Shown here: one piece after another, positions 263 through 16,494 of the stretch
How positions within the stretch are numbered: position 1 is the stretch's first letter
How the letters are laid out: every line of letters begins with the position of its first letter
From: Cladosporium halotolerans
Lineage: Eukaryota
Reading direction: 5' to 3'
Length of the DNA stretch: 64,000 bases
Assembly (NCBI RefSeq): GCF_011745625.1
Contig: NW_027191484.1
Location: forward strand, 186,001 to 250,000
The notes under the pieces: model-generated
Database searches by the model: none
Seen by the model: only the letters and a program-made list of their open reading frames with translations
Told to the model about the DNA's origin: nothing
Program-made: the position numbers and the translations under genes

Positions 263-903
263 TTAAGTTGCAGCTCCTGCAATGACAAGAATTTTGACAA
301 TGTCTTCCCAGCCTCTCATTTGCGCGACATTCAGCGCGCTCCTATAATCCCCTCTCAAACTGACATCTGCTCCATAGCTGAGCAACACTTGGATAGAGAA
401 CATGCGCGTTGCAGAGTGGCTTAGAACAATTGAAGCCCCAAACCATCGTTCTTGATGAGAATCCCACATTCCGAGGAAGAGAAGGCTTCGGAGTCCTGGA
501 AAGATGTCTTGGATGACACGCTCGCCTCTTTTCCTCGAACGTAGCTTCTTTGCTGCGCGCTTACTCGACGGCGTTGTGGTTTGCTCGGATCCGGATCCTG
601 CTGACTCCCCTGCACTAGTGGATGACAAGGAGTCATTATCAACCAACTCGTCTTCGTCAGAGGCTTTACCATCGCTATTGAAATGCCACACTTGCCATCG
701 GGATAGCGGCGTCGTAGACTTCTGAGAACCTTCTCTGAGAATTCTGCTTCTTGCATCGCCTCGCGAACTCGGGCTTCGATGTCGGTAGAATATGCTGAGC
801 CTAAGACAACGCTGTGCTTCGGTGGCTCTGTAAACTTGATTTCCGGAGCTGATCTTTTCTCCTGGCGAGACACTCGTTGTGGATGGGTGCCAGCGTCAGA
901 CAT
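263..903 (-). pseudogene. Degenerate ankyrin-repeat gene (frameshifted)
   Basis: Two overlapping minus-strand ORFs (421-903 and 263-691). The end of the second (VLLSYGADVSLRGDYRSALNVAQMRGWEDIVKILVIAGA) aligns by eye with the last ankyrin repeats of the 988-1551 protein. I found no clean intron joining the frames. Confidence 0.5.
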
Positions 904-987
904 TTGGGAGGTATCTGCATCTGTCTCCGTTCATGTCTGTGAAAGTCCTTGCGTGCCGTTGATAGGGTGAGCCAGGGGAACTATTGT

Positions 988-1551
988 TCATTTTCGGGGA
1001 GCCTTATCTCTCACGCCTCCTAGGATCTTTGGAAACATTGTGTCCAGCTTGGCTCCAGCCTCGATAAGGATGGCCACGATTTCTTTTCTGTTCCTCATAG
1101 AGGCAGCCTGCAGCGCACCTCCGTAAGCACCTTCAGTCAATGTTACATCTGCTCCGAAGTCTAGTAGCAACTGCACGATCTCTTGCCAGCCAGCGAATGC
1201 GGCAGCTTGTAACGCACTGTGGTAGTACCCGCCTACGACGTTTGCATTGGCCCCGTATAGCAGCAGCATCTTCGCAACCGCTGCATGGCCACGGAGACAT
1301 GCTGCTTGTAGAGCGCAGCCGTAAGGACCACATCTTGCGTCCATATCCGCCCCAAAAGATAGCAGCAACGCAACCGTCTCATTGTTGCCGCAGTAGCACG
1401 CGGCTTGCAGCGCTGTCCTGAAATGGCCTCCTCTTTCATTGGGATCGGCTCCCTCCCGAATCAACGCTTGCGCCGACTTCTCATCGCCTTCGTAGCAGGC
1501 AAACTGAAGCTTGTTGCCAAAGTATTGCTCTGCAAAATCCAAATTTCTCAT
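988..1551 (-). CDS. Stand-alone ankyrin-repeat protein (187 aa, ~5 repeats of the GGxYGxALQAA type)
   Basis: 33-aa periodicity: TALQAACYCG..LLLSFGAD, CALQAACLRG..LLLYGAN, SALQAAAFAG..LLLDFGAD, GALQAASMRN..LIEAGA. Confidence 0.9.
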   Translation of the reverse strand: MRNLDFAEQYFGNKLQFACYEGDEKSAQALIREGADPNERGGHFRTALQAACYCGNNETVALLLSFGADMDARCGPYGCALQAACLRGHAAVAKMLLLYGANANVVGGYYHSALQAAAFAGWQEIVQLLLDFGADVTLTEGAYGGALQAASMRNRKEIVAILIEAGAKLDTMFPKILGGVRDKAPRK

Positions 1552-2240
1552 GGCCTTTAGTGCCGTTCATAAAGGATTTCGTGGTATCGTGACAGCGGAG
1601 CGGGGATGTCTCGTCTGACCACTACGGCTTTGCAAGAGGCTGGTCCTGGTAGCGAGCGTGTTGTACAGTCGATGAAGGCAGATTCCTCAAGGCTACATGC
1701 CAAATTGGACATAATGGTCTTACTGTGGCTCGATCAGTCAAACCAAACTTTTGGCTTGGCCATTTGGACAGCCACGGTATACTTACTTAACGAAAACCCG
1801 CAATGCTGACCTAGGCTTGCAAGCAGGAAGAGTACAGGTGTGGCTCGGTCTGCCTTGCGCGCTGCTGGGGTCAGCCTCTTTGCCCTCGCTCGACAGCTTT
1901 GACGGGCGGCGGATCTTGACTTTCAGGGATTCCACTACCAGGTCAGTTGCTGACACCAGTCGCACTAAGTTACCTCTTGTTGCACGCCAAGGCATGTGAG
2001 GCCTGATGGCCTCAGGGTCCCGAGTAATATCCGATGAACTACGAAACAGCGCGGTCGCGGAGCCCAACCCGAATCTAATACAACGATTATCTATATACAG
2101 TAGGCAATGGCCTTGCAATGCGCCATGGTCCATGCGGCATCGTTCGATCGGGCCCAAGACGTGCCACAAGGCTATAACGTTACAGGAACTAGTGTTGTAT
2201 GATGAGATAGGCTTCCAGGGTTGCGGCGCCAACACAGGTA

Positions 2241-2283
2241 ACGTCCATCCACCCGTGCCGGGAATCCACCTGTGCCGGGACAC
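2241..2283 (+). repeat. Left terminal inverted repeat
   Basis: ACGTCCATCCACCCGTGCCGGGAATCCACCTGTGCCGGGACAC contains two tandem ATCCACCyGTGCCGGGA units, the usual Fot1-family TIR layout. Confidence 0.9.
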
Positions 2284-3225
2284 TTCTCCTGATCTTCGCT
2301 CTATATCCGTTATCCACACCACATCTCATTGATAACCCATCTCTTGCTATTCTTCTGCCATTTGCCTGTAGGCCTGACCGTGTGTAGAAGCACCGATTGC
2401 GTAGACAACCGTTCCATCATCCAAATCGTCGCTGTCGTCGTTCGACGCTTGTGTATCCGAGCTCGCGCAGAAGCGATACGTAGTTCGAAAAGGGTTGAAA
2501 GCTGGTACGCTAGATAAGCTGCGGTCAGAAGAACTTTATAGATTGAGACACTCTCCGCTAGGGCCCATTATCGAAGGTTACGGCACGTAGATAATCGCCA
2601 GGCTGGTATCTCTGCAGGATTCGCCTCCAGGCCCGCTAAAAAGGGCCCGAAGCGAAGCGCTCCGATGTCGCGAAGTTTACCCTCTGTGATTCGCTCGCTT
2701 AGCATGGCATGGAAGGGCAGATCCGTCGTTCGCCCGTCCGGAGCTTTGCCGCGTCTCAGCGGTTTCGATATGGCATTTGGCGTTGAGCGTTCTGCAGGAG
2801 GCGAAGGAGCCTCGTGAAATTTACAAGCAAGATCACCTTCCAGAAGCCCTGCACTTTTTAGCAATGTCTTATTCGCCGTCGCCCCAGCTACACCTTATTC
2901 TATCTACCTACTGCCCATGCAAGTGCTCCGCTATAGCTTAGGTGATGGCGAATCGAGACGGTCTAGCTTTGACGAAGTCTTCTTGCCAGCACACGATATC
3001 AAAATCGTTTCGTCCTATCGCAAACCACTCGCCCACCCTCGAACAACCCTACATGCTCATGCCAACGGCGCCGTTGATTCATCTAAAGCCCAGAGCCGGA
3101 GATAATTAAGGCAATTCCGAGGATCAGGCTATGATTGCAACCTATACTTCTGTGCACATGGTTTCTGTCCAGATCACGTGACGACGGAAATACTGGCGAA
3201 CGTGTTGCGATAAAATACCTCTCTC
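2241..3225 (+). pseudogene. Decayed inverted copy of the transposon 5' end (subterminal region plus transposase N-terminus)
   Basis: Aligns with the reverse complement of ~6890-7865. Peptide relics HPRTTLHAHANGAVDSSKAQS and GERVAIKYLS match transposase VPVSTLHARARGRRSIEAKAQG and GTPVRNKFIP, with stops and frameshifts. Confidence 0.8.
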
Positions 3226-3440
3226 ATGAGCGGACAAGCAATAAATGTGTTCCGTTCTGGTATAGCCACTGGCAATTTCAGTGTCTTCTTGCGCTGCCTT
3301 ATGCTATAGACTACCCACGTCTCCGTCAGATCTCATGCCGCATATCCACCAAGCAACGCGTGCCCTGATATTGAGCGAGCTCACTTGAATATATCGTTTC
3401 TTCTTCTGTTGCTTCGAGCCGGCGTGGGTGCGTGTTCCCG

Positions 3441-4306
3441 TCAATCCTGAAGGGAGAGAACGGCGTTGAAGTCAACAATCGTCGGATGGACTTCTTCGCT
3501 GAGTTTTGGAGTATCGATGCATGGCTGTGTTGAAAGACCGTGCTTCGAGAAAGGCCCTAGGGCAAGCACTGCCTTCATTGTTCTCAATGATTCGTTGATG
3601 TCTCTGGGGCTGTCCCTGAGGCAGCGGAGAATGTCCGGAGCATTCCCCTCAGGACAACAACGTAACAATTGCAGCAGTTCCAAAAATTTGTCGCGTTCTT
3701 GCTGGAGCACATTCGTCCTACGACGTAAAGCGCTCCACCGGGTTTCCCCCTCTTCCGTGGAATATTGACAATCAACATCTCGCTTTTGGCAATTGGAGCA
3801 TGACGGGCTGTGAAAAAAGTCAGAAGCTGAAAACACGCGCTCTTTGCGATTGGTGGAGGATCTATCACCGTGAGCCGTTACACTGCAACACCGATTAGCT
3901 GAGATTGAGAAGGATCAAAACACTGCCCAAGACATTACCTTTGCTTTCCTCGCCCTACAATTGAAGCATGCAGCTTGAATCAATGTACGTTTGCAACTGT
4001 GGTCGTTCTGAGGTCGCTGGTCAATATCGGCTGGCGGTGTCGAAGGGCGAATGTCGCTGTCATGAGGAGACACTTTCCGGTGTGTAGGCGTAGGCGTGGC
4101 ATGCTTACTGGAATGACGTTAATCTCAGTGTGACGAGCGATAGGCGATCGGTTCTGAGATTTCAAGCCTTACATAACACAGTGAAAGTGCCTGGTGCATT
4201 TGTTGGAGGAACAGCGATGCGGCCGCGAGATTTTTGATACACCATTCCCTTGCGAACGGCTTCTGTCACAGTATCGTGAGGCCTGCGGCTCTGGAGCTGT
4301 TTGCAT
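3441..4306 (-). CDS. Short Zn(II)2Cys6 protein (C6 cluster plus coiled coil only, ~227 aa)
   Basis: Spliced model: exons 4306-4173, 4107-3939, 3882-3869 (14-nt microexon) and 3807-3441, all with GT-AG introns. It gives CFNCRARKAKCNGSRPSCSNCQKRDVDC followed by EGETRWSALRRR. The 5'-most exon is the least certain. Confidence 0.75.
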
Positions 4307-5398
4307 GTGGTGGCAACTATAAAAGATTGTCAATGCTTAGCAGATCCCATGTGCTCGAGGCACTCACATACCTTTTGCGATTTGTAACAGCTGATGAACC
4401 CATAAACTCCTCAATGCTATGCCTGTAGGTAATAAAATCTTCTGCGCGAGACATCGGCAATCTCATGATAAGAGGTTAGGACGGAGTTCGTGGAGGGGCG
4501 TAAGTTGTCTTCGTGCATATGCAGCTCGAGGTAATTTTAGTACCTCGACAAGGGAGGTAAAAGGCCTTCCTCTGAAAGAGGTGATGCGTCGTTACGTAGC
4601 CGTTCATTCACGATCACAGCACTTCTCGACGCTTAAGCGCCTTTTGCGGGAATCGCCAAATCCGACCATCAATATCACTAAGATCTAATTGGACGGCGAA
4701 ATGTCATGACATGCATCCGTCGTCAGGGTCATGGCACATTCGGGCTCACCTCCGGCCCTCGGGATTGCAGTAAGCGTTTGAGGCTTTCCCGCTGTCCGGC
4801 TGGACGGCGAGGTTAGACCGGATTGAGCTCTACGGATAAATCACATCGCCTATGTGGTACAGGACTTACATTTGCTGGTATTGTGTCTAATGTACTGCTC
4901 CAAAACTCTGGAGACATTTGAAGCAAACAGCAATGGTTCCGCGGCTTCCTCCTCGTACGCGGCGACCGCGTACCGTAGAATCAAATCGGCAAGTTGATTG
5001 GCCCTTCAAGCCGACGACGGCAATATCTGAGGCGCGTGCTGCCCTCGAAACCATTTGATGGTTCGCACAGAAGCAAGAATCCGGCTAATTCGATGAATAT
5101 AATGAAGTTGCAACATTGCTTGATGCAAGTTTGTGCATGAGACACACTTAACAAAGTCATTCCAGCTTACTAAGTTATACATGCTTTCAGAAAGCGCTCT
5201 TGGTTCTTCGATAGTGGTTGCGAGTTCTCTATTTCGCGGGTGAATTTCGAAGTCGAAGAAATGAGGTCGTCTGGCTTTGCTATCTCTGCCGAATGTAGGC
5301 CTGACAGAGAACCACGGAACAGCGTTCGTGATCAGGTAATTCCAGCGACACGCAGGCTGCCATTGAGGCGCAAAGGCTAGGTTGTACCATGAGATCAC

Positions 5399-7141
5399 TC
5401 ACCACATACGCGCGACCGGCGCCGCACCAGGACACGGAGGAATAGGCGCTGCTGTGTGCTGTGCTTGAGCCATCAAGAGCGTGTCATCGGCCGATCCCGC
5501 AGCAGCTATAAGCGGCGACTGGAGCATCGCATCCAGAACGGCTTCCTCTTCACCTTTGCGCCTCCGTCGCTGCTTCTTCGCAGCTCTCCTGGCATCTTTC
5601 TCAGCTCGCTTCGCTCTCGCCTCAAAAAGATCCTCGTAACTCATCACTTTCGCTTTGCCAAGGACCAGCGACTTCGTTGCACGGCGGACTTTGGCTTCGT
5701 CATTTGTCTTGAGCAGGGATTTTATACGTTCTTGTTGAAGAACGCCTCTAGCAATGGACGTTTGAGCTCCTTTAGTGAGCTTCTGAAGGTGTCGCTGAAT
5801 GCTCTGCTTTCCTGTATCCTCCAGCGTGTGTGCATCCCTCTCCAGAATGAAGTCACGCAGCGCTAGGAAAGCCTCTGCCGTCACTGGCGTTACGGGTGTG
5901 ATGGGCGCTGCAGGGTTTATGAGCGTTTCATCTTGACAAGGCCTAGAACTTGACGTCGGTTCCCCACCGGCTTCCGGGGCCGTCAATTCGGCCAGAGGCT
6001 TCACCAAGTCCTTCAGCACTCGTTCTGGGTTCAGCGGGTACAGCCCGCCTTTGCTCCAGCCTGCGAGGATATTCTTCTTTGTAAACGCTTTCTTTCTTGC
6101 AGAGCTGTACAGGTATGTAAAGTGTTGCTTCCCAATGGCGTTAACACCGCCCCGTTCCAGGCGCTCAACGGCATCGCGATACGCTGCTTTCAAGGGGGCG
6201 AAGACAGCAATGTCACACGGCTGCAACTTATGAGATGTGTGGGAAGGTAGCCGGCATAGACGGATGTCACTGGCGAAGCAGTGCTCTAGGATCTCGAGCG
6301 TCTCGTGCGTGCCGAAACCATCACAGATCAGCAACCGTTTCTTACCCGTTGCTCGTTCCTTGGTCTGCGGGTCGAACACTTTTTTAAGCCACTCGAGGCT
6401 TATTTTGGAGTCAGTGTAGCCAGACTTGGAACACGCATAATGCCATCCTGGTGTGGGGTGCGTCGTCCAGTTGCTTCTATGGGTGGCCGCGGGCCAAATG
6501 ACCATAGGGTTTAGAAATCTACCATCCGCACTGATGCACTCGATCGCAGTGACCATCGTTCGCTCTACTCGTGCACCTCGATAATCCCGTTGGTCATCCT
6601 TTCCTACGAGCACATTAACAGAGCCGAGCATAGAGAGCATGACTCCGGTCTCGTCCATGTTGTACACATTCTCTGCAACGATTGCGTCGTCACCCAGTAC
6701 TTTACTAATCACGTCAAACCAGTGTTCTACCTTCGGGTATATGTTCTTGTCATGGCGCTTCCAATTTAGTGGTTTCGCTCGTCTGGTTTGTAGCTCTGGA
6801 TGCCTTCTCTCGAAAGCTTTGGTCCAATTCTTGTTTGGTGCTTGGGCTGGTCTGTCCACTTCCAGTCTATGGCGGGTGACACTGAAAGCTATTGATGGTA
6901 TGAACTTGTTCCGTACAGGGGTTCCCAGGTCGGACATCTCCAGGATAAACTCGATCACGGCCTTCTCCTCGAACGGCGTGAGGTATTGCTGGCCCTGGGC
7001 TTTTGCTTCGATGGATCTGCGGCCACGCGCACGAGCGTGGAGGGTAGAAACTGGAACATCCCGGTGATCTGCTATAGCACGCAACGATCTTGGTACGCCT
7101 GCGGAAACACCTTGCGCCAAAGCCAGGCTGGCTCTGTCCAT
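5399..7141 (-). CDS. Fot1/pogo-family transposase (CENP-B-type HTH plus DDE_1), 580 aa, intact
   Basis: Motifs NVYNMDETG, LICDGFGTH and LQPCD..VFAPLK; 35 residues separate the second and third Asp (DD35D). Confidence 0.95.
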   Translation of the reverse strand: MDRASLALAQGVSAGVPRSLRAIADHRDVPVSTLHARARGRRSIEAKAQGQQYLTPFEEKAVIEFILEMSDLGTPVRNKFIPSIAFSVTRHRLEVDRPAQAPNKNWTKAFERRHPELQTRRAKPLNWKRHDKNIYPKVEHWFDVISKVLGDDAIVAENVYNMDETGVMLSMLGSVNVLVGKDDQRDYRGARVERTMVTAIECISADGRFLNPMVIWPAATHRSNWTTHPTPGWHYACSKSGYTDSKISLEWLKKVFDPQTKERATGKKRLLICDGFGTHETLEILEHCFASDIRLCRLPSHTSHKLQPCDIAVFAPLKAAYRDAVERLERGGVNAIGKQHFTYLYSSARKKAFTKKNILAGWSKGGLYPLNPERVLKDLVKPLAELTAPEAGGEPTSSSRPCQDETLINPAAPITPVTPVTAEAFLALRDFILERDAHTLEDTGKQSIQRHLQKLTKGAQTSIARGVLQQERIKSLLKTNDEAKVRRATKSLVLGKAKVMSYEDLFEARAKRAEKDARRAAKKQRRRRKGEEEAVLDAMLQSPLIAAAGSADDTLLMAQAQHTAAPIPPCPGAAPVARMW

Positions 7142-7822
7142 CCTCGCGATGTGGCCGCGCCGTCGAGGTACAGTGGTACACTAGTAGAACCGGTGGGGAG
7201 CTCGGAGGAGGACCGGCTGGGGAAGCGGCCGACCCTGTCAAATGCCAAGCATTGCAAGGCTCTGGCGCACGATCTTCCATGCACTTCCATGTGAGCTTGC
7301 TTCACCTCCTGCGGAACACTGACCCCCGTTTCGATATCAAAACCTCCGAGACAGGTTTTCCCTCCAGACGGGCGGACGGTAAGCCCGCGTTGCCGCACGG
7401 TTCTACCCGAGCAAATCGCGAAGAGCGAAAGCCGCGACACCGGAGCGCATTCGCGCCTAGCCCCAGTCAGCGGGCCTGCAGGCTGATCCTGGAGAAAGAC
7501 CAGCCTGGCGCTTATCCCAAGCCACAGCCCTTCATCAACGGTCCCTGGCGGGAAGCGTTCGGATCTACAACCTTCTTCTGACCGTAGCGCATTCAGCGTA
7601 TCTGCTTTTAACTTCGCCCGGACTACGTGTCGCCTTTCCGCAAGCTCAAAAGCCGAAGCGTCAAACGATAACGGCGACGATTTGGTCGATGGAACAACTA
7701 TCCACGCGATCGGTGCTCCGACACATGGTCAGGCCGATTGGTCAATGACAGAAGAATAGTAAGAGATGGCCTATCTACAAACATTGATGTGGACAATGGA
7801 TACAGGGCGAAGATTAGAAAAG

Positions 7823-9658: not shown

Positions 9659-10144
9659 CCGGAAGTAGAGATCAAGGCTGAGGCCGAGACGCGCCATTCC
9701 CGCGATCTGACTGGAGCTGTAGCGGGAAGGACGGCGAATCTGCCGCTACACTTTCCTTGACCCGTTACCACTGCCAAGCCCAGGGCGTCTAGGCTGGGGT
9801 GAGTACAGACAGACGCAACTAAAGCGGTTAGCTATCGAGGTTCAATTAAATGGTATCGCGAAATGGTGATCAAAAATATTGTGCAGTACCTCGCAGTTGC
9901 CGCTCAGACTATAGTCACCCGTGACTGTAACATACTTTGTGTATGCATGCATGGCGCTGCACAGGGCTGTAGGCACGAGGTCCCTCGGAGCTGGCCTCGC
10001 TGGCCTATGAACGTTTTCGTCGGGTTATCCTCCGAGCCGGCTTCCACGACTCCAATTCCCATGCGTACGCTGCCGACAACACCATCATACATACTAGGAC
10101 AGCATTCACAGCGATCAGGTCCACTTCAATCACCGGCCGCCCCG

Positions 10145-12444
10145 ATGCCTACACCTTCTCATAAACAGACGGTCCGCGCCCATCCGTCCGCACCCGTAGC
10201 TGACTCGTCAACTTCCGCTGCGAGCAATTCCAATAATGGCCGAACGAACCAGAGTGCCCGCCGACAGCAGATTGGCGTAGCATGCAATTCTTGCCAAGTT
10301 CGCAAGGGCAAATGTGATGGCCAGCGTCCCTGCAAGTGGTGTCGCGACCACGAAATCCCATGTAAACACGAGGCGGAAGCTGGAGAAACCCTCACGAGCG
10401 CGAGGAAGAGGAAGTACGAAGACCTTGAGCACGAACATCTTACCCTGCTCGAGCTTGTCAATATCGCAGCTTTGCGGCCTGATGCTGGTGAAATTCTCCA
10501 GCAGTTCAAAAATGGTAGAAGAGCCGGAGATCTTGTCATCCTGCTCAAAGAGGGCGACATTACGTACCAGAATCATCTGGGAAGCGACCCACGCACCAGG
10601 CGAATGCTCCTTTCTCTCCTCATCCAGAGCACTGCGTCGCTCGACGAGATCATCCTCATAGCACCGAGAATCGCGGAAGCACGGCTGGACATCACATGGG
10701 AAGCTGAAGATGGCAGGACCAAAGCTCTGAAGAATCGCACGATTGATGCGGATGCGATTGTATCGGCCGTTGATAACCTCGTTGCTCCAGACGCTCCTCC
10801 GAAAGCTCCAGACCCGCTAGGGCAGTCATTCAACAAAACAGACCGCGGCCTCACCAACGAATTCCTGTTGAGAGCTCGGCCATGGACAAAGCTGTTGACA
10901 GACGATGCTCTGGTAACACATCTTGTGACTATATTTCTTAACTACAACAATGTATATTGGAGATACGTCGAACAAGATCTCTTCCTGAGGAGCATGCAAT
11001 CTGGGAATGTCCGAGCGGAGTTTTGTTCGCCTTTTCTGGTTAACGCTATCTGTGCGTTAGCATGTTTGAGCTCGGAACATGGTGTAGTGTTCAATCGACC
11101 CGATGACTTGATAAGCCGAGGGCAGCACTTCCACGATGAAGCGTTGCGTCTATGGCACTTGGAAAAAGGCAAGGCGTCGGTGACAAACATCCAGGCTCTT
11201 GTGATTTCTTCCATGGGATCTGGCTTTCGGGGCAAAGACAAGCTGGGCCTTTCGTTGCTCGCTGTCGCTAAGCGCATGAATGACGAATTACCCTTTCCGC
11301 CCATATCCGCAGAGACAATCACTATTTCCGACAGAACAAGAGCACGAGTCAGTGCGTGTTGGGCTTTTCATCATTTCGACACGTTCGTAGGCTCGTAGGT
11401 GGTTCATGATTTATATCAACTTTACTGACAAGACATAGGACTAGCGCGTTGGGGCTTCTTCGAGTGAGCGTACCCATCGACACAAGACTGTCGTTCTTAC
11501 CCAACTTCCCAGAGATCTGGCGTGTATGGACTGGCGAGCCTTTTCTCCGTACCAATACCTACTTCCGACCTAACGCATTAATGCGCGAGCGATGTCAACT
11601 TATCCGTCTGACAGCTGAAGCGGTGAACCTGCTCTTCACAACTGTAGACGGTATCAGTCGCCCGGCGTCTGAGAAAGCCATCAAAGCTGTGATGGCACGA
11701 ATGGAGCATTGGTATAGTCTCCTGCCGGACGATCTACAATTCCATAAGAATCTCCCAGCCCCAGTGTATGAGCTACAGTAAGTGTGATGACTTCGAGAAT
11801 GCAGATACTAACTACCTATTAACCATGTTGTCAGTGGCCACTACTACTGCGCACTAATAACTCTTCGCTCATCCTTGGATTCCTTACAAACCATCCCCAA
11901 CTGTCCCAACGCTGTCGCCCATTCCTCTGCCTCTCCACCGCAGGCACTGCTTGCAGTCCTGCAGGCGACGAATCTCTTACGAGCCTTTCGGCAGACATAT
12001 GCCTTTAAATGCCCTCTTGCTTTCATATTCCAAGTTTCTGCAATAGTATCATCAATTTTGCTTCACCATTTGGAAGTCTCTCCCACAGCATCTCCACAAT
12101 TGGCAGGTATGCTTTCGGATCCACAGGACGACGTCAAAACGGCCTTCGCCGAGAGCTACCGTTGCCTTTTGGCCATTGGGACCCGAGTCATGATCGGCCG
12201 CGGCGTGGCTCGCATGGTTTATCACACTTCTAGGGCGCGGAACACTCCTTTACCTCAGAGCACGCAGCGCTTGCTCGATGTTGTCAGCGATGTTGTTTGG
12301 AGCTCGACGGATGTGAAGCACATCAGCTCGGATTTTCCAAACTGGGGCATGCAGAAGAGCCTTGCGGTTAACGAGGATGCGCGCATGGAGCGATTACTGA
12401 AACAATGGGAAGGTATCAGGTTAAATGACGGCAGTGCAGGTTGA
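10145..12444 (+). CDS. Zn(II)2Cys6 fungal transcription factor with middle homology region (NirA/Nit-4-like architecture)
   Basis: CNSCQVRKGKCDGQRPCKWCRDHEIPC; PWT..LV..FL and FCSPFLVNAICALAC motifs. Introns 11383-11438 and 11778-11834 join three ORFs in frame. The start could be an upstream in-frame ATG such as 10061. Confidence 0.9.
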
Positions 12445-12685
12445 GGTTACTCAATGTCAACAGGGTGTTGCGATTCACAAGAATTTATGCCATCAGCAGA
12501 CCTATCAGAAACCTGTTCGACGATACCCATGGCCGCACATATGTTGGAGAACCGCTCATGATTCTCATGAATGTGATACCTAATAGGCATCGATTAGCAC
12601 ATGAGTATTGTTGTATTTTCCGATCTTGCCCGGTAGCTGAAGCCGTGGCTCGCCATGGGAAAATCAATCATTAGACGTATTACCA

Positions 12686-13441
12686 TTAAGACACAGGTTT
12701 TGTATATGAATTATCGATTACCAATAATTCGTACATACAACCATAGGTCGGCGAAAACTGGGCATCCGAAATCCCCCATGTCGAAGCCCCTCCCATGTGT
12801 GATCTTCTGGCCATACCTGATACTCGAGCGCTTCGGAGTCTGCTAGGAGATGTACAGGCACGACAGTGGCCTTTCGAACTACGCAAGACAGGTCCTTCTA
12901 TCGTGTAGTACGTCGAGTTTGTAGGGAGACGCCACGACTCAGTAGGCGGCAGAGTCAGGACCCTAACGATACCACACGCGCACGCGTATCGGGAGAATAT
13001 TCCAGACACCCCCTTACCGTATCTGCTCCAGTCCAGATATCCCGTTCGCGATCTTGCCATTTGCAATCGTGGACATCGAGCATCCGCATGATTCATTAGT
13101 GGGCCCATAGCTGAGGTAAGTGTCGTCATCTCATGCTTCTCGGCCCGTTCCTGCACCCAATCCCTAGGAAGTCCAGTCCAAAATAATAATTTGTCCACAT
13201 TGTCGGGAATGCTCTCGAGTTGTGCTATGATCTGCTCTGCTTCTGCCTGGGTAAGATATTCTAGGTCACTTTTCGTGACAGATAGTCTTGTGTTGTGTAA
13301 CGACAGTTGTTGCCGTAAGATTTGCTCTTCTAAGTCATTGTTCTGAGTTGATGGACCAGACTTCAATAGCAGCTTCGCTAGCCGACTGCATTCATTCAAC
13401 AATACCGAAAATAACAGGATATGTCTCTCCAGTGAGTCCAT
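12686..13441 (-). CDS. Putative ADP-ribosyl cyclase/NAD+ glycohydrolase-fold protein; C-terminus possibly frameshifted
   Basis: Ordered motifs LLFWTG, MTTL, KGVSGIFSRYACACGIVRVL and NSTYYTIEGPVL parallel CD38 LLWS, MFTLEDT, KTVSRRFAEAACDVVHVML and NSTFGSVEVHNL. No signal peptide. Confidence 0.6.
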   Translation of the reverse strand: MDSLERHILLFSVLLNECSRLAKLLLKSGPSTQNNDLEEQILRQQLSLHNTRLSVTKSDLEYLTQAEAEQIIAQLESIPDNVDKLLFWTGLPRDWVQERAEKHEMTTLTSAMGPLMNHADARCPRLQMARSRTGYLDWSRYGKGVSGIFSRYACACGIVRVLTLPPTESWRLPTNSTYYTIEGPVLRSSKGHCRACTSPSRLRSARVSGMARRSHMGGASTWGISDAQFSPTYGCMYELLVIDNSYTKPVS

Positions 13442-14200
13442 GAGGTGTTGCTAAAGGATTTGAGAATACTGGTCTTATGCGGCTTTCGACATGCCAAATC
13501 AAAATGTAACGTTAATTGCTCTGTTATTGTTGAGCTTCTTGTCGTGCAATCATAGATTGGCAGAGCAGGCGCTGAGACCACGCATGTAATCGAACATCAA
13601 TTGCTACAGGGCGGGGAAGCTTGAGAAATCCATTTGACACTGATCGTAGGTTTTTTATAACCGTGGATTATCGCTCGATTCGCATTTTCAGAGACGCGTA
13701 ATCTAGAATACCCCTGCCCAGAATCATATGTCGAGAATTTGATGACAAATTCTCTTATGCCATAGCCGATGCTATTGGAAAGCAAAAGTCTATGTTGCCA
13801 TACATAGCAACGGAACCCAACCTCCCCATCTGAGCAGTCATATTCCTTCGACACTGTGACCGCAGATGGCAGAACGAGATAACAACACGCAAATCTCGTT
13901 AACACGTCGCACGATTGAACAAGTGGCGGACCATGCTTAGATACAAGGCTAGCCAATAGCATGGGAGGTGGCAGCTGACCTTCAACTTCCAAGCTTCTAT
14001 AATGACAACTGTCTGGCAGACCACGCGATCGGGTGCTCTTCAAGAGTCCCTGATCCAGGATGAGTTTCAATCGACCATGTGACGAACGTTACATCCTGGA
14101 AGCCTACTATCTGAGCTGCTAAAAAAACGCCTGTCGAGGCCCAAGCGCTTATTCAAGAACTGGAACCCACGAGATCAAAGCTACGATTGGCGGGATGGCC

Positions 14201-14419: not shown

Positions 14420-15355
14420 CGTCCGCTCTGCCATACATAAGCACTGAACCGGGCGACTAGTACTAGAGTGGGTGACCATCTGGGAATCCCGCCTGTTGTA
14501 TGTTTTTGTACTTTTTCTCCGGCCATGTTGTTTTTGTGCCGATTTTATCAGCTCGATTTGAGGTTTGCCAACATGTGTTGACTCGAGCCCGAACCTTTCA
14601 TTCGAATAAAGCTCTTGCGCGGCAATAATACTAATCTTCATGAACAGAATTGACCGCCTGGAAAGAACATTTGTGTCTGCTTGGCTTTGGACATCCAGTA
14701 TAAATAGCTCATGGATCTCGATTCTTAATGCGCCGAGATGGTAACTGTGTTAGAGACAGAAGTACGTCCAAGTCCACTGCGACCATCGAGAATATCACAA
14801 TGTGGCAAGCACCAGTCAAGCAACCAAAAACTCAAAACATCGGGTTTCCCATAGGGACACGTGAAGTGAAAGAATTGCCGCCTCGATCGAGCCGTTCGCA
14901 AGCGAAAGAGACCGCGTGTCTTCAGCGGTCTTGTCCGCCACACCCAAACGACCTTCGCCTTTCACGCCATACTTCGTAGCTAATCTGGAGTCTGCAGTGT
15001 GGAAATCGTAGGCGCGTGCCTAGCTTGGGCGAAAAATGCATTTCTGTTTCGCAAGGAGCGATGGATCCAGGGATGCAAGAGAAGTTGGGGAGCGCCACCA
15101 ACAAAACCCGGCGGCAAGCGGCTGGTAGTCGGCGCTTCGCCGCTTTCTGCCTTCAGTGCCGTGAGTGCGTACCACACCATGACTCTTCCTCGAACAACAT
15201 CAGACATGGGTTCCTTGAAGATGCATCCGTGTACCCAGTCGGGCACTGGAAGAATTTCTGCCGTCGTGCACGTTCCTATAGATTCTTCAGTTCTTCGTGT
15301 CCTGCCTTGCTTCCACACATGCTGAAATAACGACCAATGGCCTCTCACATTCGTG

Positions 15356-16494
15356 ATGTATCATTTGAAGAGCATTCTCATCAGCATTTGTATCGCCGCC
15401 ACTCAATTCGCACATGCAACCACCTTCGGTGTTGGGTTCAGTCTAGCTATCGACCATGGGTATGTCAGAATAGGTATTCTCAGGGCACCAAGTCTGACCG
15501 CTGGAACAGAGTCGCCAGCGTGCATTTTCGCAACGGGTCGACCGTCAATATCGCCAAGGTAGAAGGCCCGGAGGCTTACAGGATTGCCATGGAGGTGGCT
15601 GTCCACATACCCTCTTACGCCCAAATCAATCTTACCGATGCCGCGAGTCTCAGTGCTCCGTCTTGCAGCTACGCAAGGTTGGTTCCACAGCCCGAAGCCC
15701 GTTTGGCCGTCCAGTCTCTACGTGATCGCCTCCCGCCATGGTTGGGCGGCAAGAAACCAGATGCTCCCGACGCAGCAGCACAAGCTCTCGAGAGGATGTT
15801 ACGTGTCCTCAAAATTGCCACGGAATCTTATCTTGAGACCGACATTCGCAACGCAATCGTTGCGACCCCCTACGATACCAGCGATGCCTTCAGAAGCAGC
15901 ATGCGCACAGCATCATCTGCTTTGGACATTGAAACACGTCTTTATGGAGCAGCGCAAATCTCCAACTGGGCGTTTGATATCCCCCACAATTGTCCTGGCC
16001 CTTTCGGCCCTCCAGACACTCCGTATGAAGATGACGAGTTGGTGCTTGGTATGGACTTCAGCAAAGCGGCATTCACAGCGACGCTCGGGCTTTTTGCACC
16101 AGGCTGTGGTGTGTGGGAGGACGTTCGTGTGGGACAAAGCGCTGCGTTGGGCGCAAAGAACTTGTTCGCGAAAGAACGTTGGCACGATATGCTCGTCAAT
16201 GCAATGCGGAAAGTCACCGCCTTGCCAGTCGATCATTATCCACTTGCCCGTGACATCAACCACATTAGCCGGCTTGTACTTATTGGCGAATCGGTTGAAG
16301 ATAAAAGGTTTGAGGGCGCTGTGAGGCAGGTCTTCAGTGAGCAGTACAGTGCACAAGCTACATCGAAAATAATGGGCAACGCGCAGCGGCAAGATCCAGT
16401 ATATGTTACGGCCATCGGCGGTGCTGTGCGGAATTGGTTCAACAGCGACGATATGGCGTGGAATAACTTGTTGGAAGCCGAAATAAGCCTATAG
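15356..16494 (+). CDS. Secreted protein with a degenerate Hsp70/actin-like nucleotide-binding fold
   Basis: Exon 1 (15356-15459) encodes signal peptide MYHLKSILISICIAATQFAHA; intron 15460-15509. MLRVLKIATESYLETDIRNAIVATP, LVLGMDFS, ISRLVLIGES and DPVYVTAIGGAV follow the Hsp70 NBD motif order. Confidence 0.7.

Follow-up and report, generated by a model that had tools for sequence, protein, structure and literature searches.

Background

The closest described relatives of the element reported here are ADP-ribosyl cyclase (ARC) enzymes, namely the animal cyclases CD38, BST-1/CD157 and Aplysia cyclase (Pfam PF02267) and the bacterial proteins ARCtox, Tac1 and Nac1. The element itself lies on the minus strand of a stretch of 64,000 nucleotides from Cladosporium halotolerans (contig NW_027191484.1; "the window" hereafter means this whole stretch), where a preliminary description, made from the sequence alone, had noticed a gene with CD38-like motifs. 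The locus is very probably a pseudogene, that is, a frameshifted and 3'-truncated copy of a gene from a large family of Pezizomycotina. The proteins of this family are intracellular; close to the N-terminus they contain a compact domain predicted to have the ARC (CD38-like) fold, and a long tail of basic, low-complexity sequence usually comes after it.

The active site of bovine CD38 is described as consisting of Trp118, Glu138, Asp147, Trp181 and Glu218, Glu218 being the one that catalyses and Ser185 its sole polar neighbour (PMC3329556). The toxicity of Pantoea ARCtox is reported to be abolished when W273, E299, W323 or E356 is changed to alanine (PMC12605009). In Tac1, by the account given of it, no residue but the catalytic Glu573 is strictly needed, and replacing Glu516, which is equivalent to CD38 E146, by Ala releases cyclic ADP-ribose (cADPR; PMC12356396). 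The same account presents Nac1 (Actinophytocola oryzae, Colautti et al. 2025) as a natural bacterial ARC enzyme with Ala at the E146 site and no immunity gene; it has a signal peptide, can be purified from E. coli with no immunity protein present, is non-toxic, and forms cADPR and ADP-ribose in roughly equal amounts (PMC12356396).

Fungal enzymes that consume nicotinamide adenine dinucleotide (NAD) and have been characterised so far are, as presented in PMC7955114, secreted TNT-type hydrolases without cyclase activity. Two of them, the surface enzymes AfNADase and NcNADase, resemble the role proposed below in being fungal and in cleaving NAD(P)+. They differ from the family described here in their unrelated TNT fold, in being secreted, glycosylated and disulfide-bonded, and in displaying Gln at the position of the ARC catalytic acid, and they are described there as having no cyclase or base-exchange activity (PMC7955114). 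ARC-fold proteins of fungi were noted computationally in 2012, when Zhang et al. listed the conserved Tox-ARC residues as '[ST] [DE], S, E', included 'fungi (ascomycota, basidiomycota)' in the range, and proposed that fungi and animals had acquired ARC independently from bacteria (PMC3482391). The novelty first attributed to the present locus was overrated in this respect, and that fungal set may be the present family. The main text of the 2025 ARCtox paper contains neither 'fungi' nor 'fungal' (PMC12605009), and the Tac1 paper contains no word beginning with 'fung' (PMC12356396).

Structure and decay of the window copy

The open reading frame (ORF) at 12686..13441 (minus strand) encodes 251 amino acids (aa) from ATG to stop. 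It displays the motifs LLFWTG, EMTTL, KGVSGIFSRYACACGIVRVL and NSTYYTIEGPVL, in this order, and the Glu of TIEGP is encoded by a GAA codon at 12896-12898; ORF, motifs and codon were all present as they had first been reported. The similarity scores place the match to the family far above chance: E values were 4e-111 for P0001, a protein of 90% identity, 1e-28 to 1e-45 for 27 other homologues (both by word-indexed protein search) and 1.5e-79 for the hidden Markov model (HMM) of the family.

The reference chosen for damage was the Cladosporium fusiforme orthologue P0177 (441 aa), compared by tblastn. Its aa 1-195 match 13441-12857 in one frame (-1) and its aa 201-225 match 12855-12781 in another (-2), while aa 196-200 (FQINF) and aa 226-441 have no tblastn match at the locus. 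A net deletion of 14 nucleotides follows from the protein alignment. The features of the locus, of which the four active-site codons were placed by family conservation and an alignment with bovine CD38, are as follows.

12857..13441, minus strand: retained 5' part, residues 1-195, comprising the helical extension and most of the ARC-like core (tblastn with P0177, 92% identity, frame -1)
13262..13441, minus strand: N-terminal helical extension of ~60 residues, subfamily-specific, without a signal-peptide-like run (AlphaFold2 model of P0001)
13178..13180, minus strand: TGG (Trp) codon of LLFWTG, equivalent of CD38 W125 and bovine W118
13115..13117, minus strand: codon for Thr where CD38 has E146 and the bovine enzyme E138
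13004..13006, minus strand: Ser codon of KGVS, equivalent of CD38 S193 and bovine S185
12896..12898, minus strand: GAA (Glu) codon of TIEGP, equivalent of the catalytic CD38 E226 and bovine E218
12855..12857, minus strand: break point, net deletion of 14 nucleotides relative to orthologues with a shift of the reading frame; P0177 aa 196-200 lack a counterpart and homology resumes one base on
12781..12855, minus strand: remnant, out of frame, encoding VHLLADSEALEYQVWPEDHTWEGLR; it corresponds to the two final core strands and includes near-invariant H, Y, W and P (identity of 100% to P0177 aa 201-225)
12686..12780, minus strand: sequence past the end of homology, the tail of the orthologues (aa 226-441) being absent (tblastn)

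The conserved domain is consequently not covered by an uninterrupted frame in the window copy. The 251-aa ORF had first been taken as one protein; this held for residues 1-195, which are real protein sequence, and failed for residues 196 onward, which are out of frame. For the 56 residues that the ORF adds past the break there is no match in the family. The shifted frame runs into a stop near 12718-12720, the nominal ORF ends with the one at 12686-12688, and the basic tail of the orthologues, roughly 216 aa long, is missing. Decay was also apparent at conserved sites. Six of the 51 profile columns conserved to at least 80% depart from the consensus in the window and keep it in four close orthologues (P0001 and P0177-P0179); these are F to L (QLESIP), W to R (QERAEKH), A to V (KGVS), E to G (IEGP), G to S, and a deleted Ile.

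The break was found again in contigs of two public sequencing runs; X1, another of the runs, may stem from the source itself. A contig of run X2, which belongs to another study and a different coded organism, spans 12757-13700 with five substitutions and no gaps, and a contig of run X3 spans 12707-13328 with zero differences. Their agreement across the break indicates that the deletion is real and predates the split of these two lineages. Three of the X2 substitutions fall within the ORF, and two of these (A155T and H118L) restore the state of the orthologues. An assembly error is unlikely to lie behind the deletion because independent contigs agree, and there is no room for an intron that would bridge the frameshift, since only one base separates the break from renewed homology.

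The circumstance that speaks against decay is that the 251-aa ORF remains open from ATG to stop, and one might read it as a functional shortened protein, either a new isoform or a regulator. Such a protein would retain residues 1-195, at 92% identity to the orthologue and with the catalytic Glu, Trp and Ser codons intact, and the same allele occurs in a run from a second study. Yet it would have lost the tail and carry two core strands, with their four near-invariant residues, out of frame; it would depart from the consensus in six conserved columns that all four close orthologues keep, and end in 56 residues unlike anything in the family. This reading is therefore considered very improbable. 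Having lost its tail, with its two final core strands in the wrong frame and with mutations at five further conserved positions, the window copy would be unable to catalyse. Judged from its sequence, it is most likely dead and unlikely to be an active effector; the NAD+-consuming or signal-generating effector first proposed is not supported for this frameshifted, 3'-truncated copy with its mutated conserved sites. The locus belongs in the genome annotation as a pseudogene, not as an effector.

No further copy was detected when the 64-kb window was scanned with the family HMM. Segment 12400-12900 has no second occurrence in the window, and Rfam displayed no match in 12300-13900. At the degenerate 3' end of the remnant, 35 bases (12733-12767) were covered in all four runs compared by short contigs at depths of ~150-1800, against 3-36 in the flanks, and these contigs differed at three to five bases; the excess may reflect a piece of high-copy sequence or chance k-mer matches.

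The fungal family

The family is a large group with a CD38/ARC fold that has no Pfam model, is annotated just as 'hypothetical protein' and is experimentally uncharacterised. The word-indexed protein search retrieved 28 homologues at E<=0.001, all 'hypothetical' and none with a Pfam domain. A profile built from 16 homologues was run against 1.84 billion cluster representatives. At E<=0.001 it matched 318 of the representative clusters, of which 258 still passed a limit of 1e-10 and 103 one of 1e-30. Named members, again all 'hypothetical protein', were from Cladosporium fusiforme (the source of the closest named homologue of the window ORF), Colletotrichum simmondsii, Hirsutella minnesotensis and a Chaetothyriales species, so that the family spans at least Dothideomycetes, Sordariomycetes and Eurotiomycetes.

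Members share a conserved core of ~160 residues (profile positions about 62-225), which in most of them starts at most ~30 residues from the N-terminus. The preceding helical extension is restricted to a subfamily, its profile columns being covered by only about 45-51 of about 190 family sequences. Tails following the core have a median length of 151 aa and reached at least 100 aa in 85 of 141 members. They contain 12.9% Lys and 8.1% Arg (21% together), and a run of at least four Lys/Arg was present in 42 of the 85 long tails. By a crude test, a hydrophobic signal-peptide-like run within the first 35 residues was found in only two of the 136 members starting with Met; no signal peptide was apparent in the window ORF either.

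Domain searches returned little. The window ORF matched no Pfam family, the sole sub-threshold match being PWP3A-B_N, and displayed no PF02267 match at E<=10; phmmer found nothing for it in the Protein Data Bank (PDB) at E<=10. A Pfam scan of 124 members uncovered no recurrent domain and no HET, NACHT, NLR or delivery domain. Fused longer forms (495-2000 aa) were sought and none was found, which is weak evidence by the search tool's own account, and NCBIfam and PADLOC gave nothing meaningful on 33 members.

Predicted fold

The family domain is supported, by structure prediction, as having the two-lobed alpha/beta fold of ADP-ribosyl cyclases (ARC/CD38). The AlphaFold2 target was P0001, the orthologue of 90% identity, in place of the broken window protein, with an alignment of 124 sequences; an earlier, shallow model (P0002, 16 sequences), with a mean predicted local distance difference test score (pLDDT) of 49, was left unused. 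Blocks 101-270 displayed pLDDT values of 75-97, mostly ~90, and the tail was disordered. P0001 has 44 extra N-terminal residues, and its helices 36-71 and 79-94 (pLDDT 64-77) correspond to long helices in the first ~60 residues, in line with the helical N-terminus without signal peptide that had been described for the ORF.

Foldseek against the PDB placed the type VI secretion system ARC toxin of Pantoea ananatis (9ro8, ARCtox) first (E 3.9e-4) and Streptococcus parasanguinis Tac1 (9ouf) second (E 1.1e-3), followed by human CD38 entries, Vibrio RDTND and Aplysia cyclase; among the rows listed, 39 of 39 were ARC-fold entries. VIA-align, run independently of Foldseek over 48,161 chains, again ranked 9ro8 first (Z 9.8, root mean square deviation (rmsd) 3.1, 122 residues aligned, 20% identity). 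BST-1 (Z 7.5), Aplysia cyclase (7.2), porcine CD38 (6.6) and Vibrio RDTND (5.6) took ranks two to five, and the first unrelated chain had Z 5.2, with all others at or below. The CD38/ARC fold first suggested from motifs thus recurred in both searches on the orthologue, with ARC enzymes at the five top ranks.

Applied to the Foldseek list, VIA-align gave Z 11.2 for 9ro8 (rmsd 2.8, 120/127 residues, 20% identity), Z 11.0 for 9ouf (rmsd 3.1, 125/148 residues), 7.3-8.2 for CD38, 7.6 for Aplysia cyclase and 7.6 for RDTND. Values of Z below 8 can reflect a common arrangement; the ARC match is regarded as specific because both bacterial matches exceed 8 over nearly the whole target and because the top ranks belong to one family only. 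Nucleoside 2-deoxyribosyltransferases, the SARM1 TIR domain and ThsB reached Z 4.1-4.5 in the wide search, as expected for the wider flavodoxin-like N-glycosidase scaffold.

ARCtox and Tac1 were the best structural matches of the family and, like it, they display a compact core without the extra helices of the animal enzymes, a cytosolic site of action and no disulfide-rich ectodomain. Unlike these toxins, the family resides in a fungal host and carries a long C-terminal tail that is basic; no secretion or delivery domain was found in 124 members, and no conserved immunity-like neighbour among ORFs of 170 aa or more. CD38, BST-1/CD157 and Aplysia cyclase share the fold (Z 7.3-8.2, 128-146 residues aligned), but the fungal proteins remain below the PF02267 threshold, are only 14-19% identical to them, possess a smaller core and are neither secreted nor membrane-anchored. 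That the fungal core matches the bacterial toxins more closely in structure (Z 11) than it does CD38 (Z 8) supports the independent fungal acquisition from bacterial toxins proposed in 2012.

Active-site residues

Residues were compared through a core profile, A4, built from 33 short-tailed members and searched against all PDB sequences; PDB matches of another alignment (A3) were low-complexity and Lys-rich, caused by the tails, and were discarded. In the weak HMMER alignment of A4 with bovine CD38, the bovine residues W118, T136-L137-E138, G143, S185 and E218 stood opposite W, TL-t, G, S and E of the family, respectively, and the family motif [VL]FW[TS]G aligned with QVFWSK. The equivalents of CD38 W125, D155, S193 and E226 occur at matching spacing. 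Conservation within the family was as follows, in CD38 numbering.

Position W125: W in 177 of 178 family sequences
Position S126: T or S in 173 of 178
Position E146 (bovine E138, Tac1 E516, ARCtox E299): T in 148, S in 17, A in 7 and E in 1 of 183
Position D155: D in 128 and N in 17 of 186 (D in 69%)
Position W189 (bovine W181, ARCtox W323; Ser-4): I, V or M in 188 of 189
Position S193: S in 179 of 189
Position E226 (bovine E218, Tac1 E573): E in 179 of 181

The equivalents of W125, S193 and E226, recognised in the window copy from the start, are thus 95-99% conserved family-wide, and the substitutions noticed there at the E146 and W189 positions are likewise a property of the family (Thr/Ser and Ile/Val/Met). 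A Glu poorly conserved among homologues had been named as grounds for giving up the assignment; the Glu was conserved almost throughout. The Tox-ARC signature '[ST] [DE], S, E' fits these counts at [TS], D, S and E if its letters are mapped to the S126, D155, S193 and E226 positions, a mapping which is our own. Unlike ARCtox, the family displays Thr/Ser in place of the second Glu and Ile/Val/Met in place of the second Trp, and unlike CD38 it has no E146 equivalent, probably no W189 equivalent, and Gln (91%) at the H126 equivalent. Near the W189 position, Tyr was found at Ser-5 (183/189) and Trp at Ser-8 (179/188), either of which may occupy the W189 site. Further near-invariant residues, the His of VHP (168/173) and the Tyr (167/168) and Trp (161/165) of YQxWP, have no assigned CD38 counterpart.

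The conserved Gln lies at profile position 102 (Gln97 of the ORF, in WVQERAEKH) and aligns with bovine CD38 His126, which hydrogen-bonds Glu138. The residues suggest that the Glu138-His126 pair was replaced jointly by Thr-Gln, and hence a re-wired hydrogen-bond network and not random loss. The absence of the second Glu is an argument against a 'hydrolase-type toxin', not against membership of the ARC superfamily. In this respect the family resembles Nac1, which also lacks the second Glu (Ala in place of Thr/Ser), keeps the catalytic Glu and, as seems to hold for the family, has no link to toxin-immunity genes. Nac1 differs by its signal peptide, which the family lacks by the crude test given above, and is likened to it here by description and not by sequence or structure.

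Related loci in metagenomes

A scan of metagenome contigs yielded 45 family loci, in 32 of which a single ORF spans the core. Three loci were cut by contig ends, and about 10 of the remaining 42 displayed in-frame stops, frameshifts or missing parts, which indicates that decay is common in the family. An in-frame stop located between profile positions 122 and 127 was common to four loci from different samples (L008, L009, L010 and L032), and at position 202 a second early end was shared by three of these; the four probably represent one decayed copy of one species that was sampled repeatedly.

At 16 loci with long flanks, the neighbourhood was scanned up to 6 kb away for ORFs no shorter than 170 aa. 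The scan covered 100 of the 120 computed ORFs, 20 from three loci with duplicate neighbourhoods being left out. No recurrent partner gene was found among these 100 ORFs, a scan that small (<170 aa) or intron-split neighbours would escape; neighbours were mostly housekeeping genes, different from locus to locus. Three single cases were recorded. L045 carries a HET-domain gene (6358-7749, minus strand) about 250 bases from a fragmented family copy, L033 an NB-ARC/TPR gene (372-4567, minus strand) at a distance of about 3.4 kb from a copy interrupted by an in-frame stop, and L030 a NACHT gene (7198-7713, plus strand) about 2.7 kb from an intact copy.

Proposed activity of intact members

To our knowledge, no enzyme making cADPR or NAADP (nicotinic acid adenine dinucleotide phosphate) has been characterised in fungi. 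We infer the enzymatic activity, product spectrum and cellular role of intact members as follows. NAD(P)+ would be bound in the cleft between the two lobes, and the bond between nicotinamide and ribose would be cleaved via an oxocarbenium intermediate. The invariant Glu (E226 equivalent) would stabilise this intermediate, aided by the invariant Trp (W125) and Ser (S193) equivalents. The second Glu (E146 equivalent), which drives hydrolysis of the cyclic intermediate, is replaced by Thr/Ser, so that a slower enzyme is expected, one that releases cADPR and ADP-ribose like bacterial Nac1 and not a fast NAD-depleting toxin. By this analogy, intact members are more likely to be slow, cyclase-leaning enzymes than fast NAD-depleting toxins. 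In its fullest form the proposal, which we regard as unlikely when taken with all its parts, makes them intracellular (cytosolic or nuclear) ADP-ribosyl cyclases of filamentous fungi that signal through cADPR, an isomer, or NAADP formed by base exchange, with basic tails targeting the nucleus or nucleic acid. A bolder variant is that they may remove nicotinamide from NAD-capped RNA. If fungal intracellular cyclases do exist in this form, frequent decay would mark a dispensable, fast-turnover module of signalling or conflict.

Several results weigh against an ARC assignment and an ARC-like activity. The Pfam model Rib_hydrolayse (PF02267) was reached only below threshold, in two of the 124 members (best E 0.023). 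Profile A4 had two PDB matches at E<=10, both bovine CD38 constructs and, at E 1.2 and 1.6, not significant alone; the residue equivalences depend on this alignment and on motif spacing, and the stretch around the Glu scores weakly. Feature scores in the protein Atlas stayed below 0.9, the top score of 0.86 going to 'T3SS effector EspK' and unnamed bacterial clusters and the PF02267 cluster ranking 11 with 0.83, all of them leads only. For E299 and W323 of ARCtox (E146 and W189 in CD38), which rank among its four essential residues, the family seems to have no conserved counterpart, so that it could be inactive or use another substrate. Literature searches returned no biochemical or experimental work on any fungal ARC enzyme.

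Loss of activity or a changed substrate is accordingly a real alternative. In its specific form the ARC fold would be kept by proteins that are not NAD(P)+ glycohydrolases or cyclases, acting as pseudoenzymes or binding modules, or as N-glycosidases on another nucleotide such as NAD-capped RNA, with nucleic acid bound by the basic tail. The two missing ARCtox residues would suit such proteins, as would the near-invariant H, Y, W and Ser-5 Y that have no assigned CD38 counterpart, the length and Lys/Arg content of the tails, and the weaker fold matches to deoxyribosyltransferases, SARM1 TIR and ThsB, which illustrate the versatility of the scaffold. A pseudoenzyme is hard to square, however, with a Glu kept in 179 of 181 sequences and with Trp and Ser kept in at least 95%. 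Moreover, Tac1 strictly needs just its catalytic Glu, its other active-site variants being active enough for toxicity, and Nac1 is active without the second Glu. This explanation is possible, if rather unlikely. A toxic role was also considered, in which the family would deplete NAD+ or execute cell death in fungal allorecognition, defence or meiotic conflict. It would agree with the bacterial polymorphic toxins ARCtox and Tac1 as closest structures, with a diversity of 318 clusters at 50% identity, with decay at about 10 of 42 metagenome loci uncut by contig ends, and with a HET, NB-ARC/TPR or NACHT gene within a few kb at three of 16 loci. Fungal genomes contain many HET and NLR genes, though, and such occasional adjacency is expected by gene number. 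No conserved partner or immunity-like gene accompanies the family at the 16 loci, where neighbours are mostly housekeeping; none of the 124 members carries HET, NACHT or another Pfam domain, and longer fused forms were not found (weak evidence). The missing second Glu, moreover, brings the family closer to the non-toxic, cADPR-producing Nac1 than to toxins. The toxin, allorecognition or defence role suggested in the preliminary description thus found no specific support, and is judged distinctly unlikely.

For the slow, cyclase-leaning activity preferred here, the interest attaches to the family, which is worth testing, and not to the dead window copy. A fungal family with the CD38/ARC fold is now delimited, with a near-invariant catalytic Glu and an active site like that of a cADPR-producing bacterial enzyme, and its intact members are concrete candidates for finding out whether fungi use ARC-derived nucleotides.

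Genomic setting in the window

Two further features stand near the remnant.

9803..12444, plus strand: Zn(2)Cys(6) transcription factor gene with several exons, convergent with the remnant (Pfam Zn_clus and Fungal_trans on ORF 9803-11398)
5399..7180, minus strand: transposase ORF of 593 aa, open and separate from the remnant gene (Pfam DDE_1, E 2.9e-33, and HTH_Tnp_Tc5)

The remnant and the transcription factor gene, to which ORF 11812-12444 presumably belongs as well, are arranged tail to tail, and the 3' end of the latter occupies the space of the lost tail. Two ORFs adjoining the remnant, 13597-14088 (minus strand, 163 aa) and 15331-16494 (plus strand, 387 aa), displayed no Pfam match. Other genes of the window encode INCENP, an arylsulfotransferase, an ABC transporter, a 2-oxoglutarate oxygenase, an amino-acid permease, NUFIP1, WD40 proteins, a Cys/Met pyridoxal phosphate enzyme and TAF7. 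GC content per kb ranged from 0.46 to 0.61 over the first 30 kb of the window, with no AT-rich block. The accessory island in which the locus had been placed has no basis in this setting of ordinary chromosomal genes with one nearby transposase. The latter, of the pogo/Tc5 type, is possibly intact and lies about 5.5 kb from the remnant.

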